In this document: positions 5,799 through 29,036 of the stretch, one piece after another
Numbering within the stretch: position 1 is the stretch's first letter
Layout: each line of letters begins with the position of its first letter
DNA from: an uncultured Bacilli bacterium
Lineage (GTDB): Bacteria; Bacillota_I; Bacilli_A; RF39; UBA660
NCBI GenBank assembly: GCA_934157235.1
Contig: CAKPHH010000006.1
Coordinates: 9,861-73,860, forward strand
Direction of reading: 5' to 3'
DNA length: 64,000 bases
The notes under the pieces: model-generated
Databases searched by the model: none
Told to the model about the DNA's origin: nothing
Seen by the model: only the letters and a program-made list of their open reading frames with translations
Made by a program: the position numbers and the translations under genes

Positions 5799-5819
5799 TA
5801 ATGAAAGTTCTATTTTTTT
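5787..5819. terminator. bidirectional rho-independent terminator between convergent genes
   Basis: Perfect 10-bp inverted repeat GAACTTTCAT-aata-ATGAAAGTTC followed by a T-run. It overlaps the stop codons of both the 4728..5798 gene and the 5810..6022 gene. Confidence 0.6.
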
Positions 5820-6022
5820 GAATTGATTAAGCCTTGAAGAGCTTTATTAGCAGCTTCTTCTAGTTCTATAATACTATCAATATATTTAGCATAATTTTCT
5901 ACAACATCAACAAATTCAGCTAGTTGAGGAGCATCTTTTCCTTGAATTAAGTTTCTAATAATACCAGCACTTTCTCTTAACTCAGAGGCTATTTTATCAA
6001 TACCTATAGATTCATTAGTCAT
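5810..6022 (-). CDS. small helical hypothetical protein in the essC operon (possible T7SS substrate or accessory protein)
   Basis: 70-aa ORF overlapping the upstream ORF by 8 bp. Predicted helical hairpin, no signal peptide and no WXG motif. Confidence 0.4.
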   Translation of the reverse strand: MTNESIGIDKIASELRESAGIIRNLIQGKDAPQLAEFVDVVENYAKYIDSIIELEEAANKALQGLINSKK

Positions 6023-6221
6023 TGCCTAATTCCTCCATTCTTTGAGTAGTTACTTTTTTATTAGGATCAAAGAGATTAGCATTATTTATAACTATTTGTT
6101 TATATGTTTCTAAGTTGTCTAGATAATTAATATTATCTTGATCAGTCCAAACTTTTTTCATTGCTTCTAAGTAGCCATAAATTTTATTAACTGCTTGGAC
6201 ATATTGTTCATATTCAGACAT
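6015..6221 (-). CDS. small hypothetical protein in the essC operon
   Basis: 68-aa ORF lying 10 bp downstream of the YukD-like gene, in the same orientation. Confidence 0.4.
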   Translation of the reverse strand: MSEYEQYVQAVNKIYGYLEAMKKVWTDQDNINYLDNLETYKQIVINNANLFDPNKKVTTQRMEELGND

Positions 6222-6230
6222 AAGTACCTC

Positions 6231-6488
6231 CTATACAAGAATTATTCTTGATCCATTTTTTAGGTCTGTATCTTTAACTGTTTTATTAACATCATACACT
6301 TGACCTGTTTCTTTACTGTAAAAGTTTGTTTCAGGACTAATGATGTAATCATGTTCAGTTATTTCTAAAAGTCCTTCTTCGATTAGTCTTTTTATGGTGC
6401 CAATCTTTTTATTGATAGGAATGAACAAGTCATAAGACTTCTCTATTAGAGGAATATATAAACATATTAATATTTTATTTTTATTCAT
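6231..6488 (-). CDS. esaB: YukD/EsaB-like ubiquitin-fold T7SS protein
   Basis: 85-aa ORF immediately downstream of essC. Its size and position are typical of EsaB/YukD. Similarity is weak, so the call rests on context and size. Confidence 0.5.
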   Translation of the reverse strand: MNKNKILICLYIPLIEKSYDLFIPINKKIGTIKRLIEEGLLEITEHDYIISPETNFYSKETGQVYDVNKTVKDTDLKNGSRIILV

Positions 6489-6497
6489 AATTACCTC

Positions 6498-9400
6498 CTA
6501 CTCATCAGATAAGAATTTAACAACGTTGGCTTTACCTTTAGTGATAACATAACCAAAGTTTGGCTCTAACTCTGCTCTTAAAAGACGAGAATTTGTTGTT
6601 ACTTTAAATGTAAATTGATTACCAATACCATTACCTATCCAAATACCTTCTGATAAATCAATATTAGTTTTATACCAAGCTTCATAATTAAGAGACTTGA
6701 TATTATCAATTGTTTCTACAACAATAAACTTAATTGTACCTAATTTAGATGTTTCAGAGATAGCGGTTGTAAATGAAGCTTTCTTAGTAGAATCCAGTTT
6801 AGTTAATAAAGTATTTATGCCAGTTATAATAACAACAATAGGATCTTCACTATTATCCGTTTGTTTAGCAGTAATAGCATTTAAAACTTCTTCTATTCCA
6901 GTTTGACAATTTCCACTATCATAAATTGTATTTTGTGGTGGATTGTCAGATAAAATACTTAGAGCATCTAGAATTAGACATTTACTATTTTGAATTTTTA
7001 GAATCATTTTAGCTAAACCAGAAATAAATGGTTGAAGTGATGTAATATCCTCTCCTGTTATATTGTAAATAGTATTTTTTAGAGAAATTGTAGATATTTC
7101 TAGAGTTTCTTTTTCGATACCTACTGGTATTGATAAAATACCTCTTAGAGATTGGATAACATCATTTTCAGTTACTGTTTCTGGTAGAATTGGAATTTTC
7201 TTAGCCTTGTATTCACAAATTTGATTTAATTTATTACAAATTACCTTAACGTAGTCAACAATCTTTTCTTCTTTAAATGGATAAGCTGTTTGGAATTCGA
7301 AGATACCATCTAAATTTATTAGACCACGGCCAAAACCTTTTGATGGTTCTTTTTTACGAACTCCAGGTAAGACACTTGAATAGTCTGAAGGATCATTAAA
7401 TTGTAAAACAACGTTTTGGGCAAAGTTTTGACGAAGACGGTATCTAACAGTATTAGGTCCATTTGTACTTAGAATAAAGACAATACCATACTTTAGACAT
7501 TCTCTGGTTATTTGACCTAGGGCTTCTTCGTAATCTGGATACATTTCTAAGAAGCCTTCAATATTATTGATAACAACAACAATTAAAGGAATTTGTTTAC
7601 CACCATGATTAATATAGAAATCATAAGAACCATTATAGTCAACAAATACTTTCTTACGATCATCCATAATTTGATTAATCATCTTAAATAAATTAGCAAT
7701 CTTTTCATTTTCAGATGATAATAATACTTCTCCAACATGTGGAGCATTTCTAAACATTGTTAATGTTTCAGCACCAAAGTCTAGTAGATAGAAATTTACT
7801 TCACTAGAGTCATGAGTTGTTATAGTGGAATAAATGATTGTTTGTAACATTAACTCTTTTCCAGAACCAGCAGATCCAAAAATAATAGCGTTCCCGTTTG
7901 AAGACAATGGTAGGGTTAAAACGTTTTGTTTTTGGTTATCTGGATCATCATATTCACCAATAATTGGGTTAATATTATTGGTATTAATTTGATAAGAGTA
8001 TTTTTGTTTTAAATCTTCAACATATATATTATTTGGTATTCGATCTAGCCATAGTTGAGGAATGGAAACAGATTCTTGTTTAGCTTCTTCTACTATGTAT
8101 TTAATAATATTAGTGATTTCCTCACCTTTAGAGGCTACTTGAACTTCATTTTGTTTATTATCAAGACTTTTTATATTATTTCCAGTATCATCGATAAAGG
8201 TAATACTTTGATCGGTCTTTTTCTTTCTCTTTTCGGCCGGATAATACTGAGCTCCTGCCCAAGCGGCTTGTCCTTCTGCAAACAACTCGTTGTAGCCTAC
8301 TTGTAAGTAGAAACGCCCTGCATTTTTTAATGAAGCAGCATCTGGACATTTAATCATATCCATACTGTCTGATTTATCTTGAACTTTTAAACAGACACGG
8401 AATTTAGAGTTTGACCAAATTTGATCATTAACTACTCCGGCTGGTTTTTGGGTTGCTAGAATAAGATGGACACCTAAAGAACGACCGATACGAGCTGTAG
8501 AAATTAATTGTTCCATGAACTCTGGTCTTTGATCCTTTAATTCGGCAAACTCATCAGAGATAATAAATAGATGCGAAATTGGGTTATCTACTAGACCTTT
8601 ACGATAAAGGGCTTGATACTTATAAATATCAATAGTACTTTCATCCAATTTATCTCTGGCTTCATTAAACATTCTTTGACGTTTACGAAGTTCACTTTGA
8701 ATAGAAGCTAAGGAACGGTTCATTTCAACAGTATCTAGGTTGGTGATAGTTCCAGCTAGATGAGGTAATTTCATACCTGTCTCTTTATTTTGGAAAACTC
8801 CGGCTAGACCTCCACCTTTATAATCGATAAGAACGAAGGATACTTCGTATGGATGGTAGTTTAGAGCCATTGATAAAATATAAGTAATGATAAATTCAGA
8901 TTTACCAGAACCGGTCATACCAGCAATTAAACCATGTGGTCCATGAGCTTTTTCATGTAAATCTAGTTTGAATAATTCGCCGGACTTATCAACGCCAACT
9001 GCTGTTTGAAGACTTTTGGTAGGATCATTTGATTTCCATCTATTTAATATATTTAACTGTTCTACCATACCAACATTATACATTTCTAGGAAGGTTAAGC
9101 TTAATGGTAGCGTTTGGTTTGCTTTAGCAATATCGATTGGAATGTTGGCTAGTTGTTTGCAACATTCGTACATATTTAAGTTTAAGTCAAAGTCAGCATC
9201 AAATTCTTTTTGTTTATTTGAAACTAACTCATTTTCAAAAATACCAGACTTTTTATCACCAATACTAATAAATGTTTTACATTCATTTGGTAAATTTACT
9301 AATCTTGGACTGATGACAATTAAACTGAAACCAACGTTTACTTGCATATCAGAAACATCTTTTAATATTTCTAGATCACGAACTGTTTTATAATCATCCG

Positions 9401-11072
9401 TTATGATTACATAGTATGGCTTATATTTTTTATAATCAGCACTATTTAGTTCTCTAGTACCATTTACATCTTTATATTTTCTTGCTTGTAGTTCTTGTTC
9501 TAGGGCAAGAGATATTTCTTTGGCTTCATCTAGAGTATTGGCAAAATAACGGATACTGCGATCATTACTCCAACAGTGTGGACATATTTTTAAATATTCC
9601 CATTTACTAGAATTTTTTTCATTAGTCATTAGAACTATTTTCAAATCTTCATAACTATGATAAGCAATCATTTGAAGAATTAAGCCTTCAATGAATTGTT
9701 GTTTATTTTCAGCAGTACCGATAATTGCGGTAATATTTTTTTCCACAAAAGATGTGGAAATAGGAACATTTTCTAGTAATCTTGATTCAGCTCCTAGTTT
9801 ATAAACTTCTTGTAGAAGATTATCGGAATCAATAGAAAAGTGTTCTTGTGGGAAGTTTATACTACCGGCTAATTCAGTAGTACCAATTCCTAAACGTAGG
9901 TCAAGAAAGTCTGGTTGATCAATTTCTCTTTCCCATAAATTTCTTTTCTTACCAAAAATTATTTCTTTTGTTTCTTGAATTGGTAAGTAATTATCTACTA
10001 GTATTTGACGTTGAATTTTCATAGCGTTTTGAATTTCTGTTCTTTTAGAGTCAACATACTTTTTATACATAGCTTGACGAGTTTCTTCTTTTTTGCGGTT
10101 TTGCTTAGTTTGATATATTTTTGTTAAACTTGGCCATAAAATCATTGTAGATAACATTACTCCGGTTGTTATTAAGGATGGAGCAGCTGTTTTAAAATCC
10201 TTTGAACCATCGGCTAAGCCTTGTAAAGCGGTTATTCCGGTAGTTGCTGACATCATGGACATGGTAAGCATTGGACCAACAGTATATATTAGAGGTGTTT
10301 TATCTTCTTGTTGTTTACCAGGAGGTGTATCAATATTAACATTTATTGGTTCTATTTTAGTTTTAAATCTTGGAGCACGATAGAAGTAATCATCTTCTTT
10401 ATAAAATTCAATGTTTTCTTCATCAGGATTATCCATTTCTGTTTGATTTTGAATCCATGGATGATCTTCTTCAAGAACTCTTTGATCATAATTAACAATA
10501 TTACTGATTCGATTAAGGATTATAGAGTCTTTTAAAACTATTATTTTTAGACCCATGATAAAGATAATGTCTCCATACTCTAGTTGTTTAGAGGCAATAG
10601 CAACATTATTAGCATAAGTTCCATACTTACTATTTAAATCTTGAATTACCCAAATTCCTTTGTTGTATACTAATCTGGCTTGTTGTCTTGAGATTAAGGG
10701 ATAATTATAACAGATTGTTGAGGAAGGATCATTTCCAATAGTTATTTCGCAGTCTCCACGGACACGAAGACGATTTATATTAGGTTCGATTGAGGGAGAA
10801 CAATATAATATTACATATTCGTTATCGGTATTTATTTTTAAGAAGAAAAGGCTGTATTCACTTAAGATAGCTGATTCTATTTCATTTTCTCCTAACATTA
10901 TTTTTGTTTCAAAGTCACTCTTTATTTTCCAGTGACCGTCAAACTCTTCAACATTAATTAGATTTCTGGTATTTCCTAAGTAATCGTTATCCGTTATCCA
11001 ATAATTTCCGGCTATTTTAGTTGGTAGTGTGAAATTGTAAATTTTAGTTTTTTTGATAAGTCTAACTATCAC
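6498..11072 (-). CDS. essC: type VII secretion system ATPase EssC/YukB (FtsK/SpoIIIE family with N-terminal FHA domains)
   Basis: 1524-aa ORF with two FHA-like modules at the N-terminus, a TM segment (VGPMLTMSMMSATTGITAL), and multiple P-loop ATPase domains (GLIAGMTGSGKSE etc.). Confidence 0.85.
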   Translation of the reverse strand: MIVRLIKKTKIYNFTLPTKIAGNYWITDNDYLGNTRNLINVEEFDGHWKIKSDFETKIMLGENEIESAILSEYSLFFLKINTDNEYVILYCSPSIEPNINRLRVRGDCEITIGNDPSSTICYNYPLISRQQARLVYNKGIWVIQDLNSKYGTYANNVAIASKQLEYGDIIFIMGLKIIVLKDSIILNRISNIVNYDQRVLEEDHPWIQNQTEMDNPDEENIEFYKEDDYFYRAPRFKTKIEPINVNIDTPPGKQQEDKTPLIYTVGPMLTMSMMSATTGITALQGLADGSKDFKTAAPSLITTGVMLSTMILWPSLTKIYQTKQNRKKEETRQAMYKKYVDSKRTEIQNAMKIQRQILVDNYLPIQETKEIIFGKKRNLWEREIDQPDFLDLRLGIGTTELAGSINFPQEHFSIDSDNLLQEVYKLGAESRLLENVPISTSFVEKNITAIIGTAENKQQFIEGLILQMIAYHSYEDLKIVLMTNEKNSSKWEYLKICPHCWSNDRSIRYFANTLDEAKEISLALEQELQARKYKDVNGTRELNSADYKKYKPYYVIITDDYKTVRDLEILKDVSDMQVNVGFSLIVISPRLVNLPNECKTFISIGDKKSGIFENELVSNKQKEFDADFDLNLNMYECCKQLANIPIDIAKANQTLPLSLTFLEMYNVGMVEQLNILNRWKSNDPTKSLQTAVGVDKSGELFKLDLHEKAHGPHGLIAGMTGSGKSEFIITYILSMALNYHPYEVSFVLIDYKGGGLAGVFQNKETGMKLPHLAGTITNLDTVEMNRSLASIQSELRKRQRMFNEARDKLDESTIDIYKYQALYRKGLVDNPISHLFIISDEFAELKDQRPEFMEQLISTARIGRSLGVHLILATQKPAGVVNDQIWSNSKFRVCLKVQDKSDSMDMIKCPDAASLKNAGRFYLQVGYNELFAEGQAAWAGAQYYPAEKRKKKTDQSITFIDDTGNNIKSLDNKQNEVQVASKGEEITNIIKYIVEEAKQESVSIPQLWLDRIPNNIYVEDLKQKYSYQINTNNINPIIGEYDDPDNQKQNVLTLPLSSNGNAIIFGSAGSGKELMLQTIIYSTITTHDSSEVNFYLLDFGAETLTMFRNAPHVGEVLLSSENEKIANLFKMINQIMDDRKKVFVDYNGSYDFYINHGGKQIPLIVVVINNIEGFLEMYPDYEEALGQITRECLKYGIVFILSTNGPNTVRYRLRQNFAQNVVLQFNDPSDYSSVLPGVRKKEPSKGFGRGLINLDGIFEFQTAYPFKEEKIVDYVKVICNKLNQICEYKAKKIPILPETVTENDVIQSLRGILSIPVGIEKETLEISTISLKNTIYNITGEDITSLQPFISGLAKMILKIQNSKCLILDALSILSDNPPQNTIYDSGNCQTGIEEVLNAITAKQTDNSEDPIVVIITGINTLLTKLDSTKKASFTTAISETSKLGTIKFIVVETIDNIKSLNYEAWYKTNIDLSEGIWIGNGIGNQFTFKVTTNSRLLRAELEPNFGYVITKGKANVVKFLSDE

Positions 11073-11160: not shown

Positions 11161-11191
11161 AAAAAAACGTTTCTTTTTTAGAAACGTTTTT
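11161..11191 (-). terminator. rho-independent terminator of pilin-LRR paralog 1
   Basis: AAACGTTTC-ttttttta-GAAACGTTT hairpin flanked by A/T runs. The essC promoter region follows. Confidence 0.6.
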
Positions 11192-11192
11192 A

Positions 11193-13250
11193 CTATTTTG
11201 TTATAGTGATGTCGCCATACCAGTTTTCAACGACTCCTGTTTCGAAGGTTGCTTCACTTGGCCCATCAGTAATTGCTTTCCAGTCAAAGACTCTACCTGT
11301 TTTATTGACAATTTCGACTAAGTCGCCATTCATTAAAACCCAAGGATTATATTTCTGGAAGGCATTTCTTCCAATATAGGTTACAGTGGATGGAATTACA
11401 ACTTTACCAGTTAGATGACAAATCGTAAAGGCATTATCTCCTATTGTTTCAACACCTTCTGGAATGATTACAGATTTAATTTCACTATAGTGGAACGCAC
11501 TGTTTCCAATTGTTTTTATAGTTGAAGGTATTTGAACATTTTCTTTTTTAGCTCCAGAATAACCATACAAGTAAGTATTATCAACGGTTCCATCGGCTTT
11601 TCGACCATAAATGAAACCATCTGTTAGTACTCCATCGCCATTATCAACGCTTGTTAAATAACCAATTGTGAATATCGAAGTACCATCAAATTTTATTTTA
11701 GCAGGTAAAGTTAGTTTACCGGTTAGGCTAAGGAAGTTTAGAGCATTTCTGCCTAATGTTTTTAGAGTTACACCATTTTTCTCTGTAGGTACGGTGATAT
11801 TATTTCGATTTGCTCCAGAGTAACCAATTATTTTTTCATAGTTAATACCACTTTTAGTTCTTTCATAGATCCAAATTTCACCGGAGGTTACTTTATTTAC
11901 ATTAAAGGCTTGAATATCTATAGATGTTACAGATGATGGAATATGAAGTTCTTTTAAACGATTACTGTATAGGGCTGAGGAACCAATGGTTTCTAGACCA
12001 TCAGGTAGATTTATTTCACTGATACCATCATAAGCAAAGGCTAGACTTCCAAGGGTTTTCAAAGTACTTGGAAGAACAACTTTCCAGTCATAAAGAGACA
12101 TACTGGTAAAAGCACCATTTGCTATTGTAGTTAGTTTTACATTTTCTTTTTCAGCTGGAACTATGAATGTTTTATCACTAAATTCCTTTAAATCACCGAT
12201 ATAGCCGATTATAGTACTGTAGTCATATGAACTATCACTATTTCTCTTATATAAGAATGAAGAACTTGGTAAATTATTATTACAAAAAGCACAGGTTCCA
12301 ATAGTGGTGTTTGGTCCAGGAACTAAAGTTGATATATCTTCAGATATCTTATTGTATTTAAAGGCTCTTGCCCCAATCTTTACTAATTCTTTTTGTAAGT
12401 TAAGTTTGGTTATTTGATTATTTAAAAAAGCTTCCTCTCCTATTTCTTGAACATTTTTAGGAATAGTTACGGTTGTTAATTTATTGTAAGCAAAAGCTCT
12501 ATAACCGATTTTTTTAACTGTACTTGATATAACTACGCTTTCTAAGCCCATATTGGCAAAGGTGGCATTATATATTTCGATGATATCTCTATTTTCAATG
12601 CGATTTGGAATTATAACATTTGGTCCACAATTAGGATTATACCAAGTTAGTCTAGCAGTGGTATCACTTAAGTCTTGAAAACTAAAACACTTTTTAGCTT
12701 CAGTCCTACTCATTTCAGTATAAGGAGTTTTGGTTGTGTCTATATTGCCATTGGCATCATAAACAACTATTTTACTTCTTTTACCTATTGGTCGGTAGTC
12801 TACTGTTTTTCTTGTATCTTGAAAAACATCAGTTTTCTTTAGCTTAGTTTTTTCTTGTAGAGCTATTTTCCAACCGGCGATGTCAGCACCATTAAAATAG
12901 TAACTTAAGTTTACTTTATCATTGATTAAATCCATGGCTGTTACAACGTAGGCATCTCCCCAGGTAGCAAATCCACTCTTTCCTAAATTGGTACGATCAT
13001 CTACGAGATTAGCTATATGGATATAGTAAGTCGTATCTGGATCATCTATTTCAAAAGTAGAATTTAGAACTTCTTTTTCAGCTTCATTTATGAAAGTTAA
13101 GGCGCTATTGATAAAAATATCTTTTCTTGAATTTGTTATTACTAAACTGATTGATGGAATAGCAATAGCCATTAGAATACCCATGATGACAATCACCGCT
13201 AGTAACTCAATTAAAGTAAAACCTTTTTTATTAATGTTTCTCATAAGCAT
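11193..13250 (-). CDS. type IV prepilin-like N-terminus fused to BspA-type leucine-rich repeat protein (paralog 1 of 5)
   Basis: N-terminus KKGFTLIELLAVIVIMGILMAIAIPS is a class III signal with a G|FTLIE cleavage/methylation motif. It is followed by repeated IPxSVxxIGxxAF LRR_5-like units and a conserved C-terminus VNKTG..FDWKAITDGPSEATFETGVVENWYGDITITK. Confidence 0.8.
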   Translation of the reverse strand: MLMRNINKKGFTLIELLAVIVIMGILMAIAIPSISLVITNSRKDIFINSALTFINEAEKEVLNSTFEIDDPDTTYYIHIANLVDDRTNLGKSGFATWGDAYVVTAMDLINDKVNLSYYFNGADIAGWKIALQEKTKLKKTDVFQDTRKTVDYRPIGKRSKIVVYDANGNIDTTKTPYTEMSRTEAKKCFSFQDLSDTTARLTWYNPNCGPNVIIPNRIENRDIIEIYNATFANMGLESVVISSTVKKIGYRAFAYNKLTTVTIPKNVQEIGEEAFLNNQITKLNLQKELVKIGARAFKYNKISEDISTLVPGPNTTIGTCAFCNNNLPSSSFLYKRNSDSSYDYSTIIGYIGDLKEFSDKTFIVPAEKENVKLTTIANGAFTSMSLYDWKVVLPSTLKTLGSLAFAYDGISEINLPDGLETIGSSALYSNRLKELHIPSSVTSIDIQAFNVNKVTSGEIWIYERTKSGINYEKIIGYSGANRNNITVPTEKNGVTLKTLGRNALNFLSLTGKLTLPAKIKFDGTSIFTIGYLTSVDNGDGVLTDGFIYGRKADGTVDNTYLYGYSGAKKENVQIPSTIKTIGNSAFHYSEIKSVIIPEGVETIGDNAFTICHLTGKVVIPSTVTYIGRNAFQKYNPWVLMNGDLVEIVNKTGRVFDWKAITDGPSEATFETGVVENWYGDITITK

Positions 13251-13361
13251 TACTCCTATTATCTAGATTTTAACATAGATTAGTTGTTTTTTAAAGAGCT
13301 TGTTTTGTAATACTTGTCTTTACATTTTGACAAAGTAAAATGTTTCCTTTTAGAAATGTTT

Positions 13362-15422
13362 TTATTCATTAGTTACAGTAATGTCACCATACCAGTTTTC
13401 AACAACTCCTGTTTCAAAGGTTGCGGCACTTGGTCCTCCGGTGATAGCTTTCCAATCAAAGCTTTTTCCCGTTTTATTAACTATCGTTGCAAAGTCTTTA
13501 TTGTTGGTACTAGTTTTGTAAAATGACATTCTACCTATTGTTTTCATAGTTGATGGAATTGTTATATCTTTTAATTGACAAGTACAAAAGGCATATTCAC
13601 CGATTTCTTCCACTCCTTCTGGAATAATTACCGATCTTGTGTCGGTGTAATAGAAAGAAAAAGGACCAATGGTTTTGATAGTTGAAGGTATTTGAACATT
13701 TTGTGCTCCAGACCTGGCGTAACCATATAAATAGGTTTTATCAATACTACCATCCGATTTTCTACCATAAACAAAACCTTCTGTTAATACACCATCACCA
13801 TTATCAATACTTGTTAAGCGATTTAAATTAAACATGTCATTTCCTTCAAAAATTATCTTTTCTGGTAAAGTTAGGGTACCTGTCAGCGATAAAAATTTGA
13901 ATGTGGAAGCTCCTAGCGTTGTTAGTTTTACACCATTTTTCTCGCTAGGTATGATGATATTATTTCTATTGGCACCAGAATAACCTATTAATTTCTGATA
14001 ATTAATACCACTTTCTGTTCTCTCATAGATCCAAATATCCCCGGATGTAACGTAATTAACATTAAAAGCTAAGGCACTAATATGAGTTACAGATGATGGA
14101 ATATTTAATTTTTGGAGACGGTTATTATAGAAAGCGTAAGTTCCAATGTACTTTAAATTACTTGGCAAGTTAACCTCAGCAATTCCGGCGTGTTGAAAGG
14201 CGTAATCTGAAATTTTAGTTACGGTGTCTGGTATTACGACCTTCCAATTTTTGGCGGATAAACTTTGAAAAGCTGCCGTACCGATTGTTTTTAATGGAAT
14301 ATTTTCCTTCTCAGGAGGAAGTATCAAGGTTTGATTTGGAAATTCACTTAAGTCTCCAATGTAACCAATTATTGTTGAATAATCATAACTTCCATCAGAA
14401 TTTCTTTGATACATAAAGAAAGCACTATCTAATTTATTATCACAAAAAGCGCAATTGCCTATCTTTGTATTAGCCCCAGGAACTAATGATTCAATAGTAC
14501 CAGTTAATTGATTTTTTTTAAAAGCATTAGCACCAATCGTTTGAAGCGTGGTTGGGAGTGTTAGCTTGTTGATTTCGTTATTTGTAAAGGCTTGAGAATC
14601 TATTCTTGTTACACTGCTTGGAATAGTTACGGTTTTTAGTTTATTATCTTGAAAGGCTCTTGCCCCAATAGTCTTAACTGTTTCTGGAATTCTAACACTA
14701 GTTATACCCATATTTTTAAAAGTATCAGAATATATTTCGATGACAGTTCTATTTTCAATTCGATTAGGAATTATAATGTCTGTTCCACAATTAGGATTGT
14801 ACCAAGTTAGTCTTGTTGTTGTGGCATTTAGGTCTTGAAAACTATAACATTTCTTGGCTTCCGTCCTACTCATTTCAGTGTAAGGCATTTTAGAAATATC
14901 TTTATTGCCATTTTCATCATAAACGACTATTTTACTTCTTTTACCTATCGGTCTATAATCAACGGTCTTTTTAGAATCTTGAAAGACATCAGTCTTTTTT
15001 AGCTTAGTTTTTTCTTGAAGAGCTATTTTCCAACCGGCGATGTCAGCACCATTAAAATAGTAACTTAAGTTTACTTTATCATTGATTAAATCCATGGCTG
15101 TTACAACGTAGGCATCTCCCCAGGTAGCAAAGCCACTTTTCCCTAGATTGGTACGATCATCTACAAGATTTGCTATATGGATATAGTAAGTCGTATCTGG
15201 ATCATCTATTTCAAAAGTAGAATCTAGAACTTCTTTTTCCGCTTCATTTATAAAAGTTAGGACACTATTTATATAGATATCTTTTCTAGATTCAGTTATT
15301 ACTAAACTAATTGATGGAATCGCAACTGCCATTAATATTCCCATGATGACAATTACGGCTAGAAGTTCGATTAAGGTAAAACCCTTTTTACTCATTTTTC
15401 TCATATGAATTACTCCTATCAT
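13362..15422 (-). CDS. prepilin-like LRR protein, paralog 2
   Basis: Same architecture as paralog 1. The N-terminal ~190 aa are nearly identical to paralog 1 at the nucleotide level (approximately 12880-13250 vs 15040-15420). The true start is probably MSKKGFT rather than the upstream M. Confidence 0.8.
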   Translation of the reverse strand: MIGVIHMRKMSKKGFTLIELLAVIVIMGILMAVAIPSISLVITESRKDIYINSVLTFINEAEKEVLDSTFEIDDPDTTYYIHIANLVDDRTNLGKSGFATWGDAYVVTAMDLINDKVNLSYYFNGADIAGWKIALQEKTKLKKTDVFQDSKKTVDYRPIGKRSKIVVYDENGNKDISKMPYTEMSRTEAKKCYSFQDLNATTTRLTWYNPNCGTDIIIPNRIENRTVIEIYSDTFKNMGITSVRIPETVKTIGARAFQDNKLKTVTIPSSVTRIDSQAFTNNEINKLTLPTTLQTIGANAFKKNQLTGTIESLVPGANTKIGNCAFCDNKLDSAFFMYQRNSDGSYDYSTIIGYIGDLSEFPNQTLILPPEKENIPLKTIGTAAFQSLSAKNWKVVIPDTVTKISDYAFQHAGIAEVNLPSNLKYIGTYAFYNNRLQKLNIPSSVTHISALAFNVNYVTSGDIWIYERTESGINYQKLIGYSGANRNNIIIPSEKNGVKLTTLGASTFKFLSLTGTLTLPEKIIFEGNDMFNLNRLTSIDNGDGVLTEGFVYGRKSDGSIDKTYLYGYARSGAQNVQIPSTIKTIGPFSFYYTDTRSVIIPEGVEEIGEYAFCTCQLKDITIPSTMKTIGRMSFYKTSTNNKDFATIVNKTGKSFDWKAITGGPSAATFETGVVENWYGDITVTNE

Positions 15423-15521
15423 CTAGATTTTACCATGGATTGTATTTTTTTTAAAGAGCTAGTTTTGTAATACTTGTCTTTACATTTTGACAAAGTAAAA
15501 CGTTTCCTTTTAGAAACGTTT

Positions 15522-17597
15522 TTATTCATTAGTTACAGTAATGTCACCATACCAGTTTTCAACAACTCCTGTTTCAAAGGTTGCGGCACTTGGTCCTCCG
15601 GTTATCGATTGCCAATTAAAACTCTTTCCAGTTTTGTTAACTATTTTTGTTAGAGAGCCATTACGACTTACCCAAGATATTTCTTTATAGAAGGCTTTTG
15701 AACCGATTTGAGTTACATTTTTAGGTATTACGACTGTTCCTTCTAACTGGCAAAGGTCAAAGGCATTATTTTTGATAGCAGTTACACTATCTGGTATTGT
15801 TACTGATTTAATATAACTACGCGAAAAAGAATTTGGGCCAATTGTGACAATAGTATTTGGTATCATTACATTTTGAGTATTTATTCCACCATAGGCATAT
15901 AAGTATGTATTGTTGATGGTGCCATCAGAATTTCTTCCGTAGATGAAACCATCTGTTAAATTTCCATCGCCATTATCGACTTTTGTTAATCTGTTTTGTT
16001 CAAAAGTCATGGTGCCAGTATACTTTATCTTGGCTGGTAATTTTAAGGTTCCTTTTAAGGATAAATGACGAAAGGCACTTTCACCTAGAGTTGTTAGAGT
16101 TACACCATTTACTTGGGTTGGAACAGTTATATTATTTCTACTTGCTCCAGAGTAACCAATTATTGTTGAATAATCTATTCCAGATGTTGTCCTTTTATAA
16201 ATCCAGATATCTCCTGAAGTTACAGAGTTAACATTAAAGGCCATTGCTCCTATAGAGGTTACAGATGATGGAATTTGTAATTGCTTTAGTTTATTATTAT
16301 AGAAAGCTTCTTTACCAATTGTTTTGACATTATTAGTTAGGTTTACCTCACCTATTGAAGATGATGAAAAAGCACTATTTTCAATAGTCGTTACAGTATC
16401 CGGAATTATTACTTTCCAGTTTGATAAAGCCATACGTTCAAAAGCACCTGATCCAATAGTTTTTAAAGAATAAGTCTGATGGGTTTTACTATCTTCTTTG
16501 GTTGCAGGAATTTTAAATATTTTGTCTGGAAATTCTGATAAGTCACCTATATAACCAGTTACTTTAGTATAGTCATATTTTCCTGAGGCATCCCTGGCAT
16601 AGATAAATGAGGCATTAGGGATATTATTATTACAAAAAGCACAAGTTCCGATAGTTGTGGTTGGGCCTGGGACTAAGATTCCTAGTTCTTCACTTAATTT
16701 ATTATATTGAAAAGCTCTAGCACCGATCGATTGTAGTGTTTTTTCTAGACTTAGTTTAGAAATATTTTGATTTCTGAAAGCTTCGCCATCAATTGTTGTG
16801 ACACTGGCAGGAATAATTACAGTGGTTAGTTTGTTATAAGCAAAGGCTCTGTAGCCAATTGTTTTTACAGATGAAGGAATCATAATATTTGTTAGACCTT
16901 TGTTATTGAAGGCATAAGAGTATATTTCCTCAACTGTTCTTCCTTCTATTTTACTTGGTATAACAACATCTGTTCCACATTTAGTATTATAGAAAGTTAA
17001 CTTGGCAGTAGTAGCATTTTTATATTGGAAACTGAAGCATTGTTTAGCTTCTTCCTGACTCAGTTCAATTTCTGGTTCAACAGATATCTTAATACCACTT
17101 TTATCATAAACTACTACTTTACTTCTAGTACCGACTGGTCTAAAACTAACAGATTTTCGAGTATCCTGATAGACGTCTTTAGCTTTCATTTTGTCTCTTT
17201 CAACTAATGTTATTTTCCAACCTGCTCTATCGACGCCATTATAGTAGTAATTGGTATTAACCTTAGAATTAATTAAACTCATAGTAGCAACGACATATGA
17301 ATCACTCCACTCGGCAAAACCACTTTTGCCCCAGTTACCACGATTATCAACTAAGTTAGCTATATGAATATAGTATGTTGTATCAGGATCATCTATTTCA
17401 AAAGTAGAATTTAAAACTTCTTTTTCAGCTTCATTTATAAATGTTAGAGCACTATTTACATAAATGTCTTTTCTGGCATTAGTAATGACTAGTCCAATCG
17501 AAGGAATGGCAATAGCCATTAAAATACCCATGATAACTATTACGGCTAAAAGTTCAATTAAGGTAAATCCTTTTTTACTGCTAATTACATTTCTCAT
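15522..17597 (-). CDS. prepilin-like LRR protein, paralog 3
   Basis: N-terminus SSKKGFTLIELLAVIVIMGILMAIAIPS, a BspA-like LRR body, and C-terminus GGPSAATFETGVVENWYGDITVTNE. Confidence 0.8.
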   Translation of the reverse strand: MRNVISSKKGFTLIELLAVIVIMGILMAIAIPSIGLVITNARKDIYVNSALTFINEAEKEVLNSTFEIDDPDTTYYIHIANLVDNRGNWGKSGFAEWSDSYVVATMSLINSKVNTNYYYNGVDRAGWKITLVERDKMKAKDVYQDTRKSVSFRPVGTRSKVVVYDKSGIKISVEPEIELSQEEAKQCFSFQYKNATTAKLTFYNTKCGTDVVIPSKIEGRTVEEIYSYAFNNKGLTNIMIPSSVKTIGYRAFAYNKLTTVIIPASVTTIDGEAFRNQNISKLSLEKTLQSIGARAFQYNKLSEELGILVPGPTTTIGTCAFCNNNIPNASFIYARDASGKYDYTKVTGYIGDLSEFPDKIFKIPATKEDSKTHQTYSLKTIGSGAFERMALSNWKVIIPDTVTTIENSAFSSSSIGEVNLTNNVKTIGKEAFYNNKLKQLQIPSSVTSIGAMAFNVNSVTSGDIWIYKRTTSGIDYSTIIGYSGASRNNITVPTQVNGVTLTTLGESAFRHLSLKGTLKLPAKIKYTGTMTFEQNRLTKVDNGDGNLTDGFIYGRNSDGTINNTYLYAYGGINTQNVMIPNTIVTIGPNSFSRSYIKSVTIPDSVTAIKNNAFDLCQLEGTVVIPKNVTQIGSKAFYKEISWVSRNGSLTKIVNKTGKSFNWQSITGGPSAATFETGVVENWYGDITVTNE

Positions 17598-17730
17598 AAT
17601 ATGCTACTCCTCTTATTATGAGTTTATCATGATTTAAATTTTTTTGAAATAGCAATAGACAATTTTGTGATTAGTTAGATTACATTACATATAAAAACAC
17701 TTCTGCAATTAGAAGTGTTTGTTAGTTAGT

Positions 17731-19794
17731 TTAACCTTTTGTTACCGTTATATCGCCATACCAGTTTTCAATAGTACCTGTTTCAAAAGTGGCAGCACTT
17801 GGTCCTCCTGTGATTGTCTGCCAGTCAAAACTTCTTCCCGTTTTATTAACTATGGTTGTTAATTCACTATTAATGCCTGTCCAACTCATTTCTTTATGAA
17901 AGGCATTTCTTCCTATTTCCGTAACTGTTGAAGGGATTACAACAGTACCTTTTAAGTGACAAACATCAAAAGCAGTTTCTCCAATACTTGTTACGCCTTC
18001 TGGTATAGTTACTGAAGCGATTTCACTATAGAAGAATGCATTTGGACCGATTATCTTGACTGTATCAGGAACAGTGACGTTATAACGACCATTTCTACCA
18101 TAACCATATAAGTAAGTTTTATTGATACTTCCATCAGAATTTCTTCCATAGATGAAACCATCAGTTAAGATACCATCACCATTATCTACTTTAGTTAGTT
18201 TGCTTAAACTAAATACGGTACTACCGGTAAATTTAACTTTTGCTGGTAGGGTTAGTGTTCCTGTTAAATATACATAGCGAAACGCTCCATCGCCCAAGGT
18301 TTGTAAAGCTACACCATTTTTTGTAGTGGGTATTGTAAGATTATTTCTATTACCACCAGAATAACCAATTATTGTTGAATAATCTATACCAGATGTTGTT
18401 CTCTTATAAATCCAAAGTTCTCCCGATGTTACTTTATTGTTATTGAAAGCTAACATATCAATTCTAGTTACTGAGGTTGGTATTTGAAGAGTTTTTAGAT
18501 TATTAACATAGAAAGCTTGATAACCTATTGTCTTTAGATTAGTCAGTTTATCTAAATTGACAGATTTAATTCCGGCGAAAGCAAAGGCATCAGATTCAAT
18601 ACTAGTTACAGTGGTTGGTATTTCAACATCCCAGTTATCTAGTGTCATACGATTGAAGGCTCCATAGCCAATTGTTTTAAGTGCAACGCCTTCTTTTTGT
18701 GCAGGAATTACAAACTTATTGTTACTAAATTCCTTTAAATCACCAATATAGCCAGTTATTCTTGTATAATCCGTTGTACCATTGGAATTTCTTTTATATA
18801 GAAATGCAGAACTTGGAAGATTATTATTACAAAAAGCACAAGATCCAATTGCAGTGTTAGCACCTGGTACTAGGACCTCTATTGTATCTGATAATAAATT
18901 ATATTGAAAAGCTCTAGCACTTATTGTATTTAAGGATTCAGCTAAATTTATTTTAGTAAGACTATTTTTCATGAAAGCTTCTGTACCGATTGTTGTGACA
19001 CTTGAAGGAACAACTACAGTAGTTAATTTATTATAGGCAAATGCTCTACTACCAATTGTTTTTATGGTACTTGGAATTTTTACGTTTGTTAGACCTTTGT
19101 TGTTGAAAGTATAAGAATGGATTTCATCAACTGTTCTACCTTCAATTTTACTTGGTATTGTTACCTCTGTTCCACAATTAGTGTTATAGTATGTTACTTT
19201 GGCAGATGTTGCACTTTTATATTGAAAACTAAAACATTTCTTGGCCTCGCCTTCACTCATGATAAGTTCTGGTTCGACAGATGATTTTATACCATTTTTA
19301 TCATAAACGATTACTTTACTTCTACTACCGATTGGTCTAAAAGATATCTTTTTTTCAGAGTCTTGATAAATGTCATGCTTGTTTAACTTTTCTTTTTCGC
19401 GTAAAAGTATTTTCCAACCTGCTCTATCTACACCATTAAAATAGTATGTAATGTTAACTTTAGAATTAACTAAATCCATAGCGGCAACAACATAGGAATC
19501 TTTCCAAGCGGCAAAGCCACTTTTTCCCCAGTTTGTACGATCATCCACTAAATTAGCAATGTGAATATAGTATGTTGTGTCCGGATCATCTATTTCAAAA
19601 GTAGAATTTATTACTTCCTTTTCAGCCTCGCCAATAAAAGTTAAAACACTATTTATATAGATATCCTTTCTGGCCTCTGTAATGACTAGGCTAATAGATG
19701 GTATAGCAACAGCCATTAAGATACCCATGATTACGATTACTGCTAAAAGTTCAATTAGGGTAAAACCCTTTTTACTGCTAATTATTTTTTTCAT
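17731..19794 (-). CDS. prepilin-like LRR protein, paralog 4
   Basis: Same N- and C-terminal modules as the other paralogs with a divergent LRR core. Confidence 0.8.
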   Translation of the reverse strand: MKKIISSKKGFTLIELLAVIVIMGILMAVAIPSISLVITEARKDIYINSVLTFIGEAEKEVINSTFEIDDPDTTYYIHIANLVDDRTNWGKSGFAAWKDSYVVAAMDLVNSKVNITYYFNGVDRAGWKILLREKEKLNKHDIYQDSEKKISFRPIGSRSKVIVYDKNGIKSSVEPELIMSEGEAKKCFSFQYKSATSAKVTYYNTNCGTEVTIPSKIEGRTVDEIHSYTFNNKGLTNVKIPSTIKTIGSRAFAYNKLTTVVVPSSVTTIGTEAFMKNSLTKINLAESLNTISARAFQYNLLSDTIEVLVPGANTAIGSCAFCNNNLPSSAFLYKRNSNGTTDYTRITGYIGDLKEFSNNKFVIPAQKEGVALKTIGYGAFNRMTLDNWDVEIPTTVTSIESDAFAFAGIKSVNLDKLTNLKTIGYQAFYVNNLKTLQIPTSVTRIDMLAFNNNKVTSGELWIYKRTTSGIDYSTIIGYSGGNRNNLTIPTTKNGVALQTLGDGAFRYVYLTGTLTLPAKVKFTGSTVFSLSKLTKVDNGDGILTDGFIYGRNSDGSINKTYLYGYGRNGRYNVTVPDTVKIIGPNAFFYSEIASVTIPEGVTSIGETAFDVCHLKGTVVIPSTVTEIGRNAFHKEMSWTGINSELTTIVNKTGRSFDWQTITGGPSAATFETGTIENWYGDITVTKG

Positions 19795-19914
19795 AATACG
19801 CTACTCCTATTATCTAGATTTTAACATAGAATTTTATTTTTTTAAAGTGTTATTGTTGTGGAGGGTAACTTTTTGGTTTACAAAGAAAGAGACTTTCTAT
19901 AGTTAGAAGTCTCT

Positions 19915-21954
19915 TTAATTTTTGGTTATTTCGATATTTCCACTAGATGTTTTAACTGTACCTGCTTCAAAAGTGGCTTTTTCTGTTCCTCCAGTGATTA
20001 CTTTCCAATCAAAGCTTTTTCCTGTTTTATTTATAATTTTTGTTAAGTTAGGATTGGATGATGAACTTTTATAGAAAGCTTGGTTATCTATAGAAGTTAC
20101 TGTTGATGGAATTGTGATAGTACCTTTTAACTTACATGCATTGAAGGCAAATTTATTTATTTTTTGTACACCTTCAGGAATGGTTACTGATATAGTATTA
20201 CTATATTGGAAAGCTCCAGGGCCAATTATTTTTACTGTTGATGGAATAACTACATTTTCTTGATTTGTTCTAGCGTAGGCAAATAAATAATTCTTATTAA
20301 TGCTTCCGTCGGTGTTTCTGCCATAAACAAAACCATCCGTTAATGTTCCATCACCATTATCTATTTTAGGAATGTTTGCTCCTAAGAACATTGTTTCTCC
20401 TTTTAAAAGGACATTAGCTGGTATTTTTAAAGTTCCTGTTAAGCTTAAACTTCTAAATGAGGCATCAGCTATACTTTCAAGTTTTATACCATTAGTGGTA
20501 GAGGGAATTGTTATATCAGATTTGTTTGCTCCGGCATAACCAATTATTGTTTTATAGTTAATGCCATTACTGTTTCTGCCATATATCCAAATATCTCCAG
20601 AAGTAACTTCATTTAAGTTAAAAGCTAGTTGGCCTATTTTAGTAACAGAGCTTGGGATATGTAAGGTTTTAATCTTGTCTCTTTCAAAGGCATTGTTACC
20701 AATCGTTTTTAGGGTATTTGGGAATTCTACACCTGTTAGTCCTGTATAAGCAAAAGCTAATTCACCGATTGTTTCTAGACCATCTGGTAATACCAGAGTT
20801 CTTCCTGATAAATTCATACTCATGAAAGCTCTATTTGAGATATTCTTTAATGTTACACCTTTCTTGGTTCCTGGTATAGTAAATTTATCTTTAGGGATTT
20901 CGTTTGCGTCACCCATAAAACTTACTATTGTTGTATAATCCCAGCTACCATCAGTATTTCTCTTATATAAGAAAGATGCATTTGGTATTTTATTATTACA
21001 GAAAGCACATGATCCTATTACAGTTGATGACCCAGGGACAAGCGCTTCGATATCTTCAGTAATTTCATTTGATTTAAAGGCGCGCGCTCCGATTTTTTGA
21101 AGAGAAGCATCTAATTTTAACTTGTTTATTTTATTATTTACGAAGGCTTCGGTACCGATTGTCTTAACACTTTTGGGAATAGTTACAGAAGTTAGATTGT
21201 TTACCGCAAATGCTCTTTCGCCAATTGACTCTACCGTATCTGGTATTAGAACATTAACAAGTCCTTTACCTACAAATGCTGAGTTATCTATTTTTACAAC
21301 ATCCATTTCGCCGATTCTATTTGGGATAGTAACATCATTAATACAGGTTGGACTATATGCGGTAATACTTATTGTAGAAGCGGTTAGTTTTTTGTAAGTA
21401 TAACATTTCTTGGCCTCTTCTTCCTCTAATGAGAAGAAAGGAGATTTAGTTGTATCTTTTAGACCATTGACATCATAAACAATGATTTTAGTTCTATTAC
21501 CTACAGCTCTATACTCAACTTTTTTTCGGGATTGTTGGTAGATGTTACTTTTCTTCAATCTAGTTCTTTCAACTAATCTTATTTGCCAACCAGCTTGATC
21601 AACGCCATAAAAATAGTAATTATGTTCTTCTTTATTATTAATTAGATCCATAGTTGCGACTACATAAGCATCAGCCCAGGTAGCAAAACCGCTTTTACCT
21701 AAATTGGTAGGATCATCTACTAAGTTAGCTATATGAATATAATAAGTTGTATCTGGATCATCTATTTCAAAAGTAGAGTTTACAACTTCTTTTTCAGCCT
21801 CATTAATAAATGTTAAGACACTATTTAAATAAATATCTTTTCTAGCATCAGTAATTATTAATCCGATTGAAGGTATCGCAACAGCCATTAAGATACCTAT
21901 GATGACAATTACCGCTAATAACTCGATCAATGTAAATCCTTTTGCATTCTTCAT
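19915..21954 (-). CDS. prepilin-like LRR protein, paralog 5 (most divergent C-terminus)
   Basis: N-terminus MKNAKGFTLIELLAVIVIIGILMAVAIPS with an LRR body. The C-terminal module is related but diverged (GGTEKATFEAGTVKTSSGNIEITKN). Confidence 0.8.
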   Translation of the reverse strand: MKNAKGFTLIELLAVIVIIGILMAVAIPSIGLIITDARKDIYLNSVLTFINEAEKEVVNSTFEIDDPDTTYYIHIANLVDDPTNLGKSGFATWADAYVVATMDLINNKEEHNYYFYGVDQAGWQIRLVERTRLKKSNIYQQSRKKVEYRAVGNRTKIIVYDVNGLKDTTKSPFFSLEEEEAKKCYTYKKLTASTISITAYSPTCINDVTIPNRIGEMDVVKIDNSAFVGKGLVNVLIPDTVESIGERAFAVNNLTSVTIPKSVKTIGTEAFVNNKINKLKLDASLQKIGARAFKSNEITEDIEALVPGSSTVIGSCAFCNNKIPNASFLYKRNTDGSWDYTTIVSFMGDANEIPKDKFTIPGTKKGVTLKNISNRAFMSMNLSGRTLVLPDGLETIGELAFAYTGLTGVEFPNTLKTIGNNAFERDKIKTLHIPSSVTKIGQLAFNLNEVTSGDIWIYGRNSNGINYKTIIGYAGANKSDITIPSTTNGIKLESIADASFRSLSLTGTLKIPANVLLKGETMFLGANIPKIDNGDGTLTDGFVYGRNTDGSINKNYLFAYARTNQENVVIPSTVKIIGPGAFQYSNTISVTIPEGVQKINKFAFNACKLKGTITIPSTVTSIDNQAFYKSSSSNPNLTKIINKTGKSFDWKVITGGTEKATFEAGTVKTSSGNIEITKN

Positions 21955-22027
21955 AACATTCGCTCCTATTATAATAGTAGTTTATCATATTTTTGTTATT
22001 TTTTAAATGCAAACTATGGGTTATTCT

Positions 22028-24202: not shown

Positions 24203-24425
24203 AATTTCTTTTCTCCTTTTTATTAATTATAAGATTTTTTCATAAATAAAAGCAATCGATGGAACATAGACTTGCTGAATTTTTAAGCCTATTTAGACTT
24301 TTTAATTAGATACTTGATTATCATAGAACTTCATTTACAGATGTTGTGTATACTTTGGTATTTAAGAATTGAAAAATATGTAAAGTTACTTTTTTTATGC
24401 TATTCTATAATAAAGAGGTGAATAT

Positions 24426-25289
24426 ATGGAAGAGAAGAAAGAAGTAAGTGTTAAAAATACTAAAAGTACGACATTAGTGATTGTGATGCTTATGATAGTA
24501 ATACTTGGGCTAGCTGGATTAGTTTTTTATCAAAATAAATTGTTAGATAAAGAAAGAGAAAAGGTGAATTCCAATAAAACGGATAACACTACTAGTGAAG
24601 TAGAGCAAAAAAGGTTTAGTGAAGAGGAATTAAATAACTATTTAAAAATGGTTCCTTATTTACAAGAATATAATTCTGATGCTGGTTATGAAGAAATGTA
24701 TGATTATAATGAAGATGCTTATACTGGCAAATTGGTAACGGCTAATGATTTGAATGTAAAACTATTATTAGCTCAGGCCTATAGATATGCTGAACGTACT
24801 AATGTACAGCATTCAATTAATCATCCCATTTGTGGTAATGATCTTTGTACAGCAGATATATATGTAGAGGAGAAGACATTTAAAGAAACTGTTAAAGATA
24901 TGTATAATATCGACACAATAAAAGTTGATGGTTTTAATACCGGAGAAGGGTATGTTAAGCTTTCTAAAGGCTATTACGCAGCAATTATGACTAGAGGAAG
25001 CACTCCGATACATAAGTATAATAAATTAATTAAATATGAGGTTAAAGATAATGATTTAATTATTTATGAAAAGGTTTTATTTACTGCTGGAGTATCTGCA
25101 GTAACGTACGTATTGAAAACTACTAATAGTGACCTTTCTACATCATTAATTCAACCTACATTAGGTAATTTTGATGAAGCTGAGAAATATGCTTTAAACA
25201 ATATTGATTCAGGAAATACTTATAAACATACATTTAAAGTAAATAATGAAGGTAATTATTATTGGTATAGTAGTGAATTAAGTAACTAG
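24426..25289 (+). CDS. membrane-anchored hypothetical protein
   Basis: 287-aa ORF with RBS AGAGGTG. Single N-terminal TM (TLVIVMLMIVILGLAGLVFY) followed by an extracytoplasmic domain. Its 3' end is duplicated at ~28945-29026. Confidence 0.5.
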   Translation: MEEKKEVSVKNTKSTTLVIVMLMIVILGLAGLVFYQNKLLDKEREKVNSNKTDNTTSEVEQKRFSEEELNNYLKMVPYLQEYNSDAGYEEMYDYNEDAYTGKLVTANDLNVKLLLAQAYRYAERTNVQHSINHPICGNDLCTADIYVEEKTFKETVKDMYNIDTIKVDGFNTGEGYVKLSKGYYAAIMTRGSTPIHKYNKLIKYEVKDNDLIIYEKVLFTAGVSAVTYVLKTTNSDLSTSLIQPTLGNFDEAEKYALNNIDSGNTYKHTFKVNNEGNYYWYSSELSN

Positions 25290-25305
25290 TATATAAAAGA
25301 AAAAA
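25224..25305. repeat. direct repeat copy A (3' end of the 24426..25289 gene)
   Basis: ATTATTGGTATAGTAGTGAATTAAGTAACTAGTATATAAAAGAAAAAAG is exact in both copies and embedded in a ~80-bp near-identical stretch. The other copy is at 28945-29026. Confidence 0.8.
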
Positions 25306-25385
25306 GTCATCGGAATAGTCCGGTGGCTTTTTTTGCTTTTGTAAAAGTATATGTTATACACATACTTCTTGTTTAAATTATTAAT

Positions 25386-28326: not shown

Positions 28327-28538
28327 TTTTCTCCTCCTTTTTATTTTATTAAAAGGTAAATATAGCTTACTTCTTAATTATTTATGATATGAATTAAGTT
28401 GTTTTTTCAAGTATACTTCCCAATGGCATTATAACATAATTTTTACAAAATGACACTATTTGTAGAACTTTTTTATATTATATGTATATAAATAAAATCT
28501 ATTATAAATGACAAAATATATATAGGTGGTGATATTAA

Positions 28539-29026: not shown

Positions 29027-29036
29027 ATTAGATTTT

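Follow-up and report, generated by a model that had tools for sequence, protein, structure and literature searches.

What are five consecutive genes, each joining the N-terminus of a type IV prepilin to a large body of leucine-rich repeats (LRR), doing in a gut bacterium, and could they supply it with alternative adhesins displayed on a pilus? The question is raised by a 64-kb stretch of DNA, referred to here as the window (GC content ~31%), on contig CAKPHH010000006.1 of an uncultured RF39-type bacterium of the Bacilli. A preliminary description of the window had reported a tandem array of five paralogous minus-strand genes, and at all five positions we find consecutive minus-strand open reading frames (ORFs) of 679–691 amino acids (aa), all with intact reading frames and with minor start corrections for two of them. 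We conclude that the array is a case of a known class, the modular type IV pilins, and not a new architecture, and we lean toward a reading in which its products act as minor pilins, so that a filament of type IV or Com type would present alternative LRR adhesins. From the amidase gene on one side to essC on the other, the genes are as follows (positions in the window; domain boundaries in residues).

c5, 19915..21954, minus strand: ORF of 679 aa, first gene of the array, adjoining the amidase gene; leader MKNAKG followed by FTLIE; alpha1 7–58, globular part 59–172, Cys-Cys junction 173–206, LRR 207–633, C-terminal module 634–679; N_methyl 34.1 bits, LRR_5 E 2e-56.
c4, 17731..19794, minus strand: ORF of 687 aa; leader MKKIISSKKG; alpha1 11–62, globular part 63–175, junction 176–209, LRR 210–641, C-terminal module 642–687.
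c3, 15522..17597, minus strand: ORF of 691 aa, the copy taken for structure prediction; leader MRNVISSKKG; alpha1 11–62, globular part 63–175, junction 176–209 (C187 and C207), LRR 210–645, C-terminal module 646–691.
c2, 13362..15422, minus strand: ORF of 686 aa; likely true start at 15404, giving 680 aa and the leader MRKMSKKG.
c1, 11193..13250, minus strand: ORF of 685 aa, last gene of the array, adjoining essC; likely true start at 13244, giving 683 aa and the leader MRNINKKG.

The starts of c1 and c2 were placed at 13244 and 15404 because the spacing to the ribosome-binding site is conserved and the gene calls of other strains agree; with these corrections the leaders are 6–10 residues long, and in all five copies the leader ends in KG and is directly followed by FTLIELLAVIVIMGILMA(I/V)AIPS.

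Each copy is laid out in the same way, with a prepilin N-terminus (Glu5), a pilin-like head, a solenoid of BspA/LRR_5-type repeats and a family-specific C-terminal module. In searches with hidden Markov models (HMMs), every paralog exceeded the Pfam gathering thresholds for both N_methyl (PF07963; 31.1–34.1 bits in 5/5 copies, threshold 21.2) and LRR_5 (PF13306; E 1e-51 to 3e-62, 174–209 bits, cutoff 27.7, three stretches per copy in 5/5 copies), and all five also scored above the cutoff of TIGR02532, IV_pilin_GFxxxE (29–33 bits, cutoff 16.3). These matches, together with the short basic leader running to Gly, the hydrophobic stretch of ~21 residues and the Glu at +5 present in all five copies, bear out the class III prepilin N-terminus proposed for the array. 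Across a 109-member alignment of the family, Phe1 and Glu5 of the mature protein (F11 and E15) never vary and Gly-1 hardly does, and two cysteines at the pilin–LRR junction, C187 and C207 in c3 numbering, are invariant across the family; in an alignment of 95 head-family sequences, Phe1, Glu5 and Pro22 are unchanged throughout and Gly-1 and Gly14 almost so. Gly-1, Phe1, Glu5, Gly14 and Pro22 are the residues that classically govern how a pilin is processed and assembled. In a few members from other metagenomes (P0300, P0330 and P0347), Ala replaces Gly at position -1 of the prepilin motif (...KAFTLIELL...); Ala at this position is the sole substitution reported to be tolerated by prepilin peptidases. 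The conserved C-terminal module that had been noted at the outset is real and, among the proteins retrieved, is confined to pilin-fused LRR proteins (0/133 giant LRR proteins that are not pilins carry it). By profile score the five copies are not members of the LRR adhesin family HupY/LrrG, whose equivalog model NF047961 they match at 107–143 bits against a cutoff of 1250, and they have the repeat type alone in common with it.

Structure prediction points in the same direction. A full-length AlphaFold2 model of c3, built on the 109-sequence family alignment, has a mean predicted local distance difference test score (pLDDT) of 91.9 and a predicted template modeling score of 0.79, and a second model is also confident (pLDDT 87.6). 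Both show an alpha1 helix of 50 residues and a four-strand sheet; in c3 the helix spans residues 13–62 and the strands residues 73–78, 96–109, 112–123 and 127–133, so that the head as predicted has the lollipop fold of pilins, in which an alpha1 of ~50 residues packs on an antiparallel beta-sheet, in line with the pilin-like head that had been proposed. Beyond the pilin module, which extends to about residue 175, follow as distinct modules the two-cysteine junction, a long beta-solenoid and, at the C-terminus, a small element. Among solved structures, the solenoid resembles LRR_5 surface proteins (4fs7, 4gt6, pneumococcal PcpA 4cp6, 4h09 and TpLRR 6mlx; Foldseek E 1e-8 to 1e-3), as expected for a BspA-type LRR protein. 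In a profile search against the PDB, pilins were matched through alpha1, and for the head Foldseek detected nothing significant in the PDB.

Modular pilins, that is, N_methyl proteins carrying an extra domain foreign to pilus biology, were defined by Raynaud et al. 2021 (PMC8179133), and the combination of N_methyl with LRR_5 in 5/5 copies, as well as the separate modules of the c3 model, places the array among them. The preliminary description had regarded the architecture as not a standard, described one; this does not hold, for Dataset S1 of the same paper (PMC8179133) lists the pair of N_methyl and the BspA-type LRR region (IPR012902-IPR026906) in 18 proteins, making it the seventh most common architecture, with a two-copy form in a further entry of 6 proteins. 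Nor is the architecture rare: in a full-length search, the best 120 clusters at 90% identity are nearly all full-length family members, collinear, ~670–700 aa long, of the same architecture and 42–68% identical, and these best-scoring clusters come from uncultured RF39-type gut and rumen Bacilli. Longer variants of 845–1088 aa have an internally duplicated LRR body, and the sole public name for such proteins is 'leucine-rich repeat protein [Bacilli bacterium]' (e.g. MBO5121316.1). The architecture is thus catalogued and functionally uncharacterized; as far as we found, what is unreported is the lineage-specific tandem array with strain-variable cassettes and the family-specific C-terminal module.

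Among characterized proteins, the closest parallels are the pilins PilB (pilin plus von Willebrand factor A, vWA, module) and PilC (pilin plus lectin) of Streptococcus sanguinis (PMC8179133; Shahin et al. 2023, PMC9934059), which share with the array proteins a class III signal peptide, Glu5, a small N-terminal pilin module followed by a bulky C-terminal binding module, and a monoderm host; the vWA module grafted onto PilB mediates adhesion (Raynaud et al. 2021, PMC8179133). They differ in that the module grafted in the array is a solenoid of ~430 LRR_5 residues with its family-specific C-terminal module, in that PilB and PilC are single genes inside a pil operon whereas the LRR-pilins are two to five tandem paralogs far from any pil locus, and in that assembly into a filament is, for the array proteins, a proposal. 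The solenoid in turn resembles BspA-type LRR proteins (Tannerella BspA, pneumococcal PcpA, Treponema TpLRR, 4fs7, 4gt6 and 4h09) in its PF13306 repeats and fold; these are generally surface-exposed and implicated in adhesion. Their N-termini are ordinary signal peptides and they use other anchors (choline-binding repeats, lipid or a C-terminal sorting domain), in contrast to the prepilin signal and pilin domain of the array proteins. The bulky tip minor pilins of Gram-negative systems (CofB of enterotoxigenic Escherichia coli, GspK of type II secretion systems and Thermus ComZ) carry extra domains unrelated to those of the array and, unlike it, are encoded by single-copy genes within their own operons; GspK also lacks the Glu5 that is invariant in the LRR-pilin family. 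Finally, the head is homologous to many stand-alone pilins of ~190–215 aa from the same kind of metagenome-assembled genome (MAG) (760 matches; 1,644 with P0016 as the query), such as P0016, named 'type II secretion system protein [Bacilli bacterium]' at NCBI. These RF39-type proteins have a homologous alpha1 and head (34–48% identity over ~130 residues) and likewise form tandem paralog arrays away from machinery, with five copies in locus L111, but have neither LRR body nor C-terminal module; it is plausible that they are shaft subunits rather than adhesin carriers.

The copies align collinearly with few gaps and are 56–71% identical to the first copy. Paralog identity is 82–94% in alpha1, 60–91% in the head, 50–63% in the LRR body and 53–82% in the C-terminal module. 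The center, which had been described as divergent, is therefore indeed the most variable part but, at these identities, not highly divergent. The ratio of nonsynonymous to synonymous divergence (dN/dS) between paralogs is 0.06 in alpha1, 0.16 in the head, 0.23 in the LRR body and 0.21 in the C-terminal module, while synonymous divergence is saturated (dS >1). The copies are therefore old and under purifying selection, so that they are not recent duplicates, nor are they decaying; from the dN/dS of 0.23 we reject gene-wide positive selection for the LRR body. The heads of c1 and c2 (window positions 12621–13250 and 14781–15422) are a special case. Because they are 91% identical while the LRR bodies of the same two copies are only 60% identical, recombination or gene conversion in the 5' part of c1/c2, or a recombinant origin of c2, is suggested by the sequences; the lowest head dS (0.56) is far below the lowest LRR dS (1.16).

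Strains of the same species differ in how many copies they carry. An exact-sequence look-up of c3 gave no match, and we obtained 20 same-species loci through exact matches to two neighboring proteins; the window's L13 protein is found without any change in 489 collection blocks, human-gut metagenome contigs among them. Copies in other strains were assigned by matching them to c1–c5 of the window, which gave these arrangements, read from the amidase gene to essC.

Five copies, c5-c4-c3-c2-c1: the window and, identical as far as its locus reaches, L014.
Four copies, c5-c4-c3-c1: L007, L008, L020, L024 and L026.
Three copies, c5-c4-c1: ten loci.
Two copies, c5-c4: L019.

The copy number thus differs between strains, with two, three, four or five cassettes. 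Specifically, c5 is never missing where a same-species locus extends to the amidase end of the array (97–100% identity), c4 orthologs are 93–100% identical, c3 is absent from the three- and two-copy strains, c2 occurs in the window and L014 only, and c1 orthologs are 96–98% identical in three- and four-copy strains and missing from two-copy L019. Because orthologs across strains are 93–100% identical while paralogs are 50–70% identical, the variation consists in the presence or absence of whole, old cassettes.

Each cassette also appears to be equipped for its own expression. Promoters and terminators were called by consensus matches and fold predictions, and the spacers share a common layout in which a hairpin with a U-run lies directly 3' of the stop codon, followed by a promoter-like block, AGGAG and ATG.

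21979..22009, minus strand: promoter-like block before c5 (promoter scan, spacer alignment).
19882..19914, minus strand: terminator-like hairpin with U-rich tail after the c5 stop (spacer alignment, fold).
19818..19847, minus strand: promoter-like block before c4 (scan, spacer alignment, other strains).
17693..17720, minus strand: terminator-like hairpin after the c4 stop, 10-bp stem and U5 (scan, spacer alignment, fold).
17621..17651, minus strand: promoter-like block before c3, a weaker match (spacer alignment).
15497..15521, minus strand: terminator-like hairpin after the c3 stop, 9-bp stem and U-run (z = -3.09).
15427..15456, minus strand: promoter-like block before c2 (scan, spacer alignment, other strains).
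13337..13361, minus strand: weak hairpin and U-run after the c2 stop (aligned spacers; z = 0.07, no better than shuffled).
13267..13296, minus strand: promoter-like block before c1, TTTAAA, 17 nucleotides, TG-n-TAAAAT, then AGGAG.
11161..11191, minus strand: terminator-like hairpin between the c1 stop and the essC start, 12-bp stem then U7 (terminator scan).

The hairpin between c1 and essC is the strongest (fold -24.2 kcal/mol, z = -3.66, 0/200 shuffles as good), and no hairpin was found in the spacer between the amidase gene and c5. The promoter-like block of c1 has 9/12 matches with an extended TG in the promoter scan and is conserved across spacers and strains. From these predicted signals, each copy looks like its own transcription unit. 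We also considered phase variation and rejected it: the lengths of promoter A-tracts are constant per ortholog across strains, and a single coding-tract frameshift was seen. In this one case (L007, 14409–16471), the loss of one A from a coding A7 (GAG AAAAAAA TAT) splits c4 into ORFs of 160 and 509 aa, which could be a real off-variant or an assembly error.

Taken as minor pilins, the array proteins would work as follows. The class III signal peptide, whose motif is present in each copy, would direct membrane insertion via the hydrophobic alpha1, and a prepilin peptidase encoded elsewhere in the genome would cut after Gly-1. The pilin module of ~165 residues would then allow a type IV or Com-type machine to take up the subunit, by analogy with S. 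sanguinis PilB most likely at the tip or close to it, since the bulk of a 50-kDa LRR solenoid would not fit into the packing of the shaft. There the solenoid, closed by the C-terminal module, would bind a ligand on host mucus, cells or partner microbes, as suggested by the roles of BspA-family proteins. The array itself consists of old, well-separated cassettes, each with a promoter-like block and a terminator-like hairpin of its own, and strains hold two, three, four or five of them; because strains differ in their cassettes, the array would serve as a repertoire of alternative adhesins that varies from strain to strain. The preliminary description had offered a repertoire of pilus-displayed adhesins as one explanation, and this stands as the best reading, supported by the fusion of a prepilin-type N-terminus to BspA-type LRRs and by the varying copy number, with display and adhesion as its conjectural parts.

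What weighs against this reading is the company the genes keep. As had been stated, PilB, PilC and PilD are not among the genes of the 64-kb window. More broadly, the window, ~2.1 Mb of related loci and the neighborhoods of family members in other species yielded no prepilin peptidase, assembly ATPase or platform protein, and in the ~2.1 Mb neither the Walker-box motif of PilB/ComGA-type ATPases, GPTGSGK(S/T), nor a motif of an A24 peptidase was matched. A candidate major pilin was not found in the same species either. Several apparent leads dissolved on inspection. The ORFs at 25386–28326, whose sizes would fit PilB and PilC, encode surface proteins with dockerin and Listeria-Bacteroides repeats; unannotated neighbors of stand-alone pilins in relatives (L005, L112) proved to be membrane proteins of thioredoxin fold and others unrelated to pili; and among close head-only matches considered as major pilins (P0001–P0008), P0001 and P0003 are frameshift-split LRR-pilins, and those of 161–162 aa look like assembly breaks. 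The literature on pili in RF39 or CAG-877 yielded nothing relevant, and a paper on pilins in TANB77 concerns a Tad-type pilus in a different clade.

These absences fit the strongest competitor, to which we assign a distinctly lower but still appreciable likelihood: that the prepilin N-terminus is an export and anchoring device only, the LRR being shown on alpha1-tethered or short wall-spanning stubs and no long pilus being made, much as in archaeal sugar-binding proteins with class III signal peptides. In the contexts examined, pilin-module genes are scattered or in arrays and never beside assembly genes; the module is fused to many surface domains (dockerin, LRR_5), as a general display scaffold would be; and with RF39 genomes of ~1.4 Mb, economical reuse of one export route is plausible. 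Conservation within the pilin module argues the other way. Glu5, Gly14 and Pro22, conserved across the family, are important when filaments assemble, whereas cleavage and anchoring can do without them; in addition, purifying selection maintains the globular pilin domain (dN/dS 0.16), for which a simple anchor would have no need.

Somewhat more tentatively still, the pilin module may be a general surface-display scaffold in RF39-type gut Bacilli, carrying LRR, dockerin and other domains, with strain-variable arrays setting the target of attachment, be it a host surface or a partner microbe. In this lineage the pilin module is indeed also fused to dockerin and to short LRR_5 regions. Family arrays in other species occupy unrelated sites, for example three copies with a 352-aa N_methyl protein between Peptidase_M13 and HI0933-like genes, and a single-copy locus also occurs; neither essC nor pilus genes were found near the three-copy array or the single-copy locus. 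Several observations concern surface assemblies of these bacteria more generally. The minus-strand genes at 25386–28326, near the array, encode surface proteins with type I dockerin and Listeria-Bacteroides repeats, a related MAG encodes a cohesin protein (L005, 20006–20648), and the pilin-module proteins P0120 and P0470 carry dockerin, which hints that RF39-type Bacilli build surface assemblies from cohesin and dockerin. In relatives, a short way upstream of small N_methyl genes, lies a conserved membrane protein of ~395–400 aa with a thioredoxin-like domain (L005, 4207–5409; L112, 8217–9404; L113, 4913–6100), with radC in the region where the contig reaches that far; given the invariant cysteine pairs of the pilin family, this protein could conceivably be a dedicated disulfide oxidoreductase.

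The position of the array next to essC invites a different thought, that its products serve the adjacent type VII secretion genes (essC, a ubiquitin-like 85-aa protein and two small helical proteins) as substrates or accessory surface parts. The neighbor on the c1 side is a true Firmicute-type EssC (TIGR03928, 1027 bits, cutoff 778), 90–91% identical to the EssC of 'Mycoplasma sp. CAG:877' and of a Hadza gut MAG, and the array lies directly upstream of it on the same strand in 13/13 same-species loci that reach both, so that the preliminary description was right about the position. A working link to type VII secretion did not stand up. We compared 80 species-representative loci centered on EssC and examined 17 relatives in detail: HMMs of the head, LRR and C-terminal module built from the paralogs had no match within 10 kb of essC in any of the 80 loci, and a scan of the species-representative genomes with the paralog alignment gave no relatives. 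In the 17 relatives the flanking gene order is otherwise largely conserved, the amidase gene adjoins essC in 14 (an amidase match is missing in the other three), and none has the array, which by these comparisons is a lineage-specific insertion, as gene order indicates. Family arrays of other species lie at unrelated sites away from essC, and the interval from c1 to essC holds the strong terminator-like hairpin together with a separate promoter-like site; the array's own transcription signals and its absence from the relatives' essC loci argue against a working link. Moreover, type VII substrates are signal-less helical proteins, whereas the array proteins carry a membrane-insertion signal and gave no Pfam or NCBIfam match to a WXG100- or LXG-type helical substrate domain in any of the five copies, and linkage to essC is not conserved. 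We therefore regard this connection as very improbable and the adjacency to essC as incidental, a coincidence of position. The essC cluster itself (5810–11072, minus strand; compare L027–L106) is compact and consists of essC followed by ORFs of 85, 68 and 70 aa in an order shared by the 17 RF39-type relatives examined in detail (one lacks a match to the 70-aa ORF). The small ORFs have no significant family match in Pfam or NCBIfam, apart from a weak ESAT-6-like match of the 70-aa ORF (E 0.05), and EssA, EssB and EsaA were not recognized among the neighbors of essC, which may thus represent a minimal or divergent type VII system.

Least credible of all is that the copies are decaying, non-functional duplicates or an artifact of repeat assembly, for although c4 is frameshifted in L007 and many family fragments in metagenome assemblies are broken, the five frames are intact, dN/dS is well below 1 in every region with dS >1, and the same cassettes recur at 93–100% identity in 18 independent assemblies, contigs of 113–850 kb among them.

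The surroundings of the array vary between strains as well. Upstream of it lie an Amidase_3 cell-wall hydrolase, a 181-aa secreted protein and a helix-turn-helix (HTH) membrane protein, and the remaining genes of the window are housekeeping genes or unrelated to pilus assembly. Upstream of a gene for a 236-aa HTH protein, positions ~24400–29500 hold dockerin/Flg_new genes and a small HTH gene in the window; other strains (compare L007–L012 and L015–L016) have a resolvase, an SLFN/AlbA_2 gene, a LysR gene and a sigma-70-like cluster there, and still others lead directly to ATP-grasp and aminotransferase genes. These differences mark a second variable island beside the array. About 8 kb past htrA, L018 (19199–20258) and L023 (19084–20258) carry a Cas9 gene where other strains have restriction-modification or amidase genes, and this site is another strain-variable defense island near the locus. 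Further along the minus strand of the window (36054–42308), an ORF of 2084 aa has a very A-rich coding strand, Cornifin-like low-complexity repeats and a weak match to a transglutaminase core; it measures 1973 and 2212 aa in other strains, and further strains have different genes in its place between truA and rplM (compare L001 and L003 with L002 and L004).

RF39 is a common, uncultured order of the human gut with a reduced genome; its genus CAG-877, Candidatus Faecimonas in family CAG-611, has genomes of ~1.4 Mb with 28% GC (Gilroy et al. 2021, PMC8035907). The array reveals no new kind of machine, and what it adds is that one RF39 lineage carries a large family of LRR-adhesin pilins labeled merely as "leucine-rich repeat protein". 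If the pilin module is a general display scaffold, it would be a counterpart to the extensive reliance on modular pilins in small-genome bacteria of the candidate phyla radiation, and these genes would lie at the heart of a dependent lifestyle. Should the proteins be displayed on pili, they would be candidate determinants of strain-level colonization and immune recognition, and would offer the modular-pilin field a natural multi-allele system.

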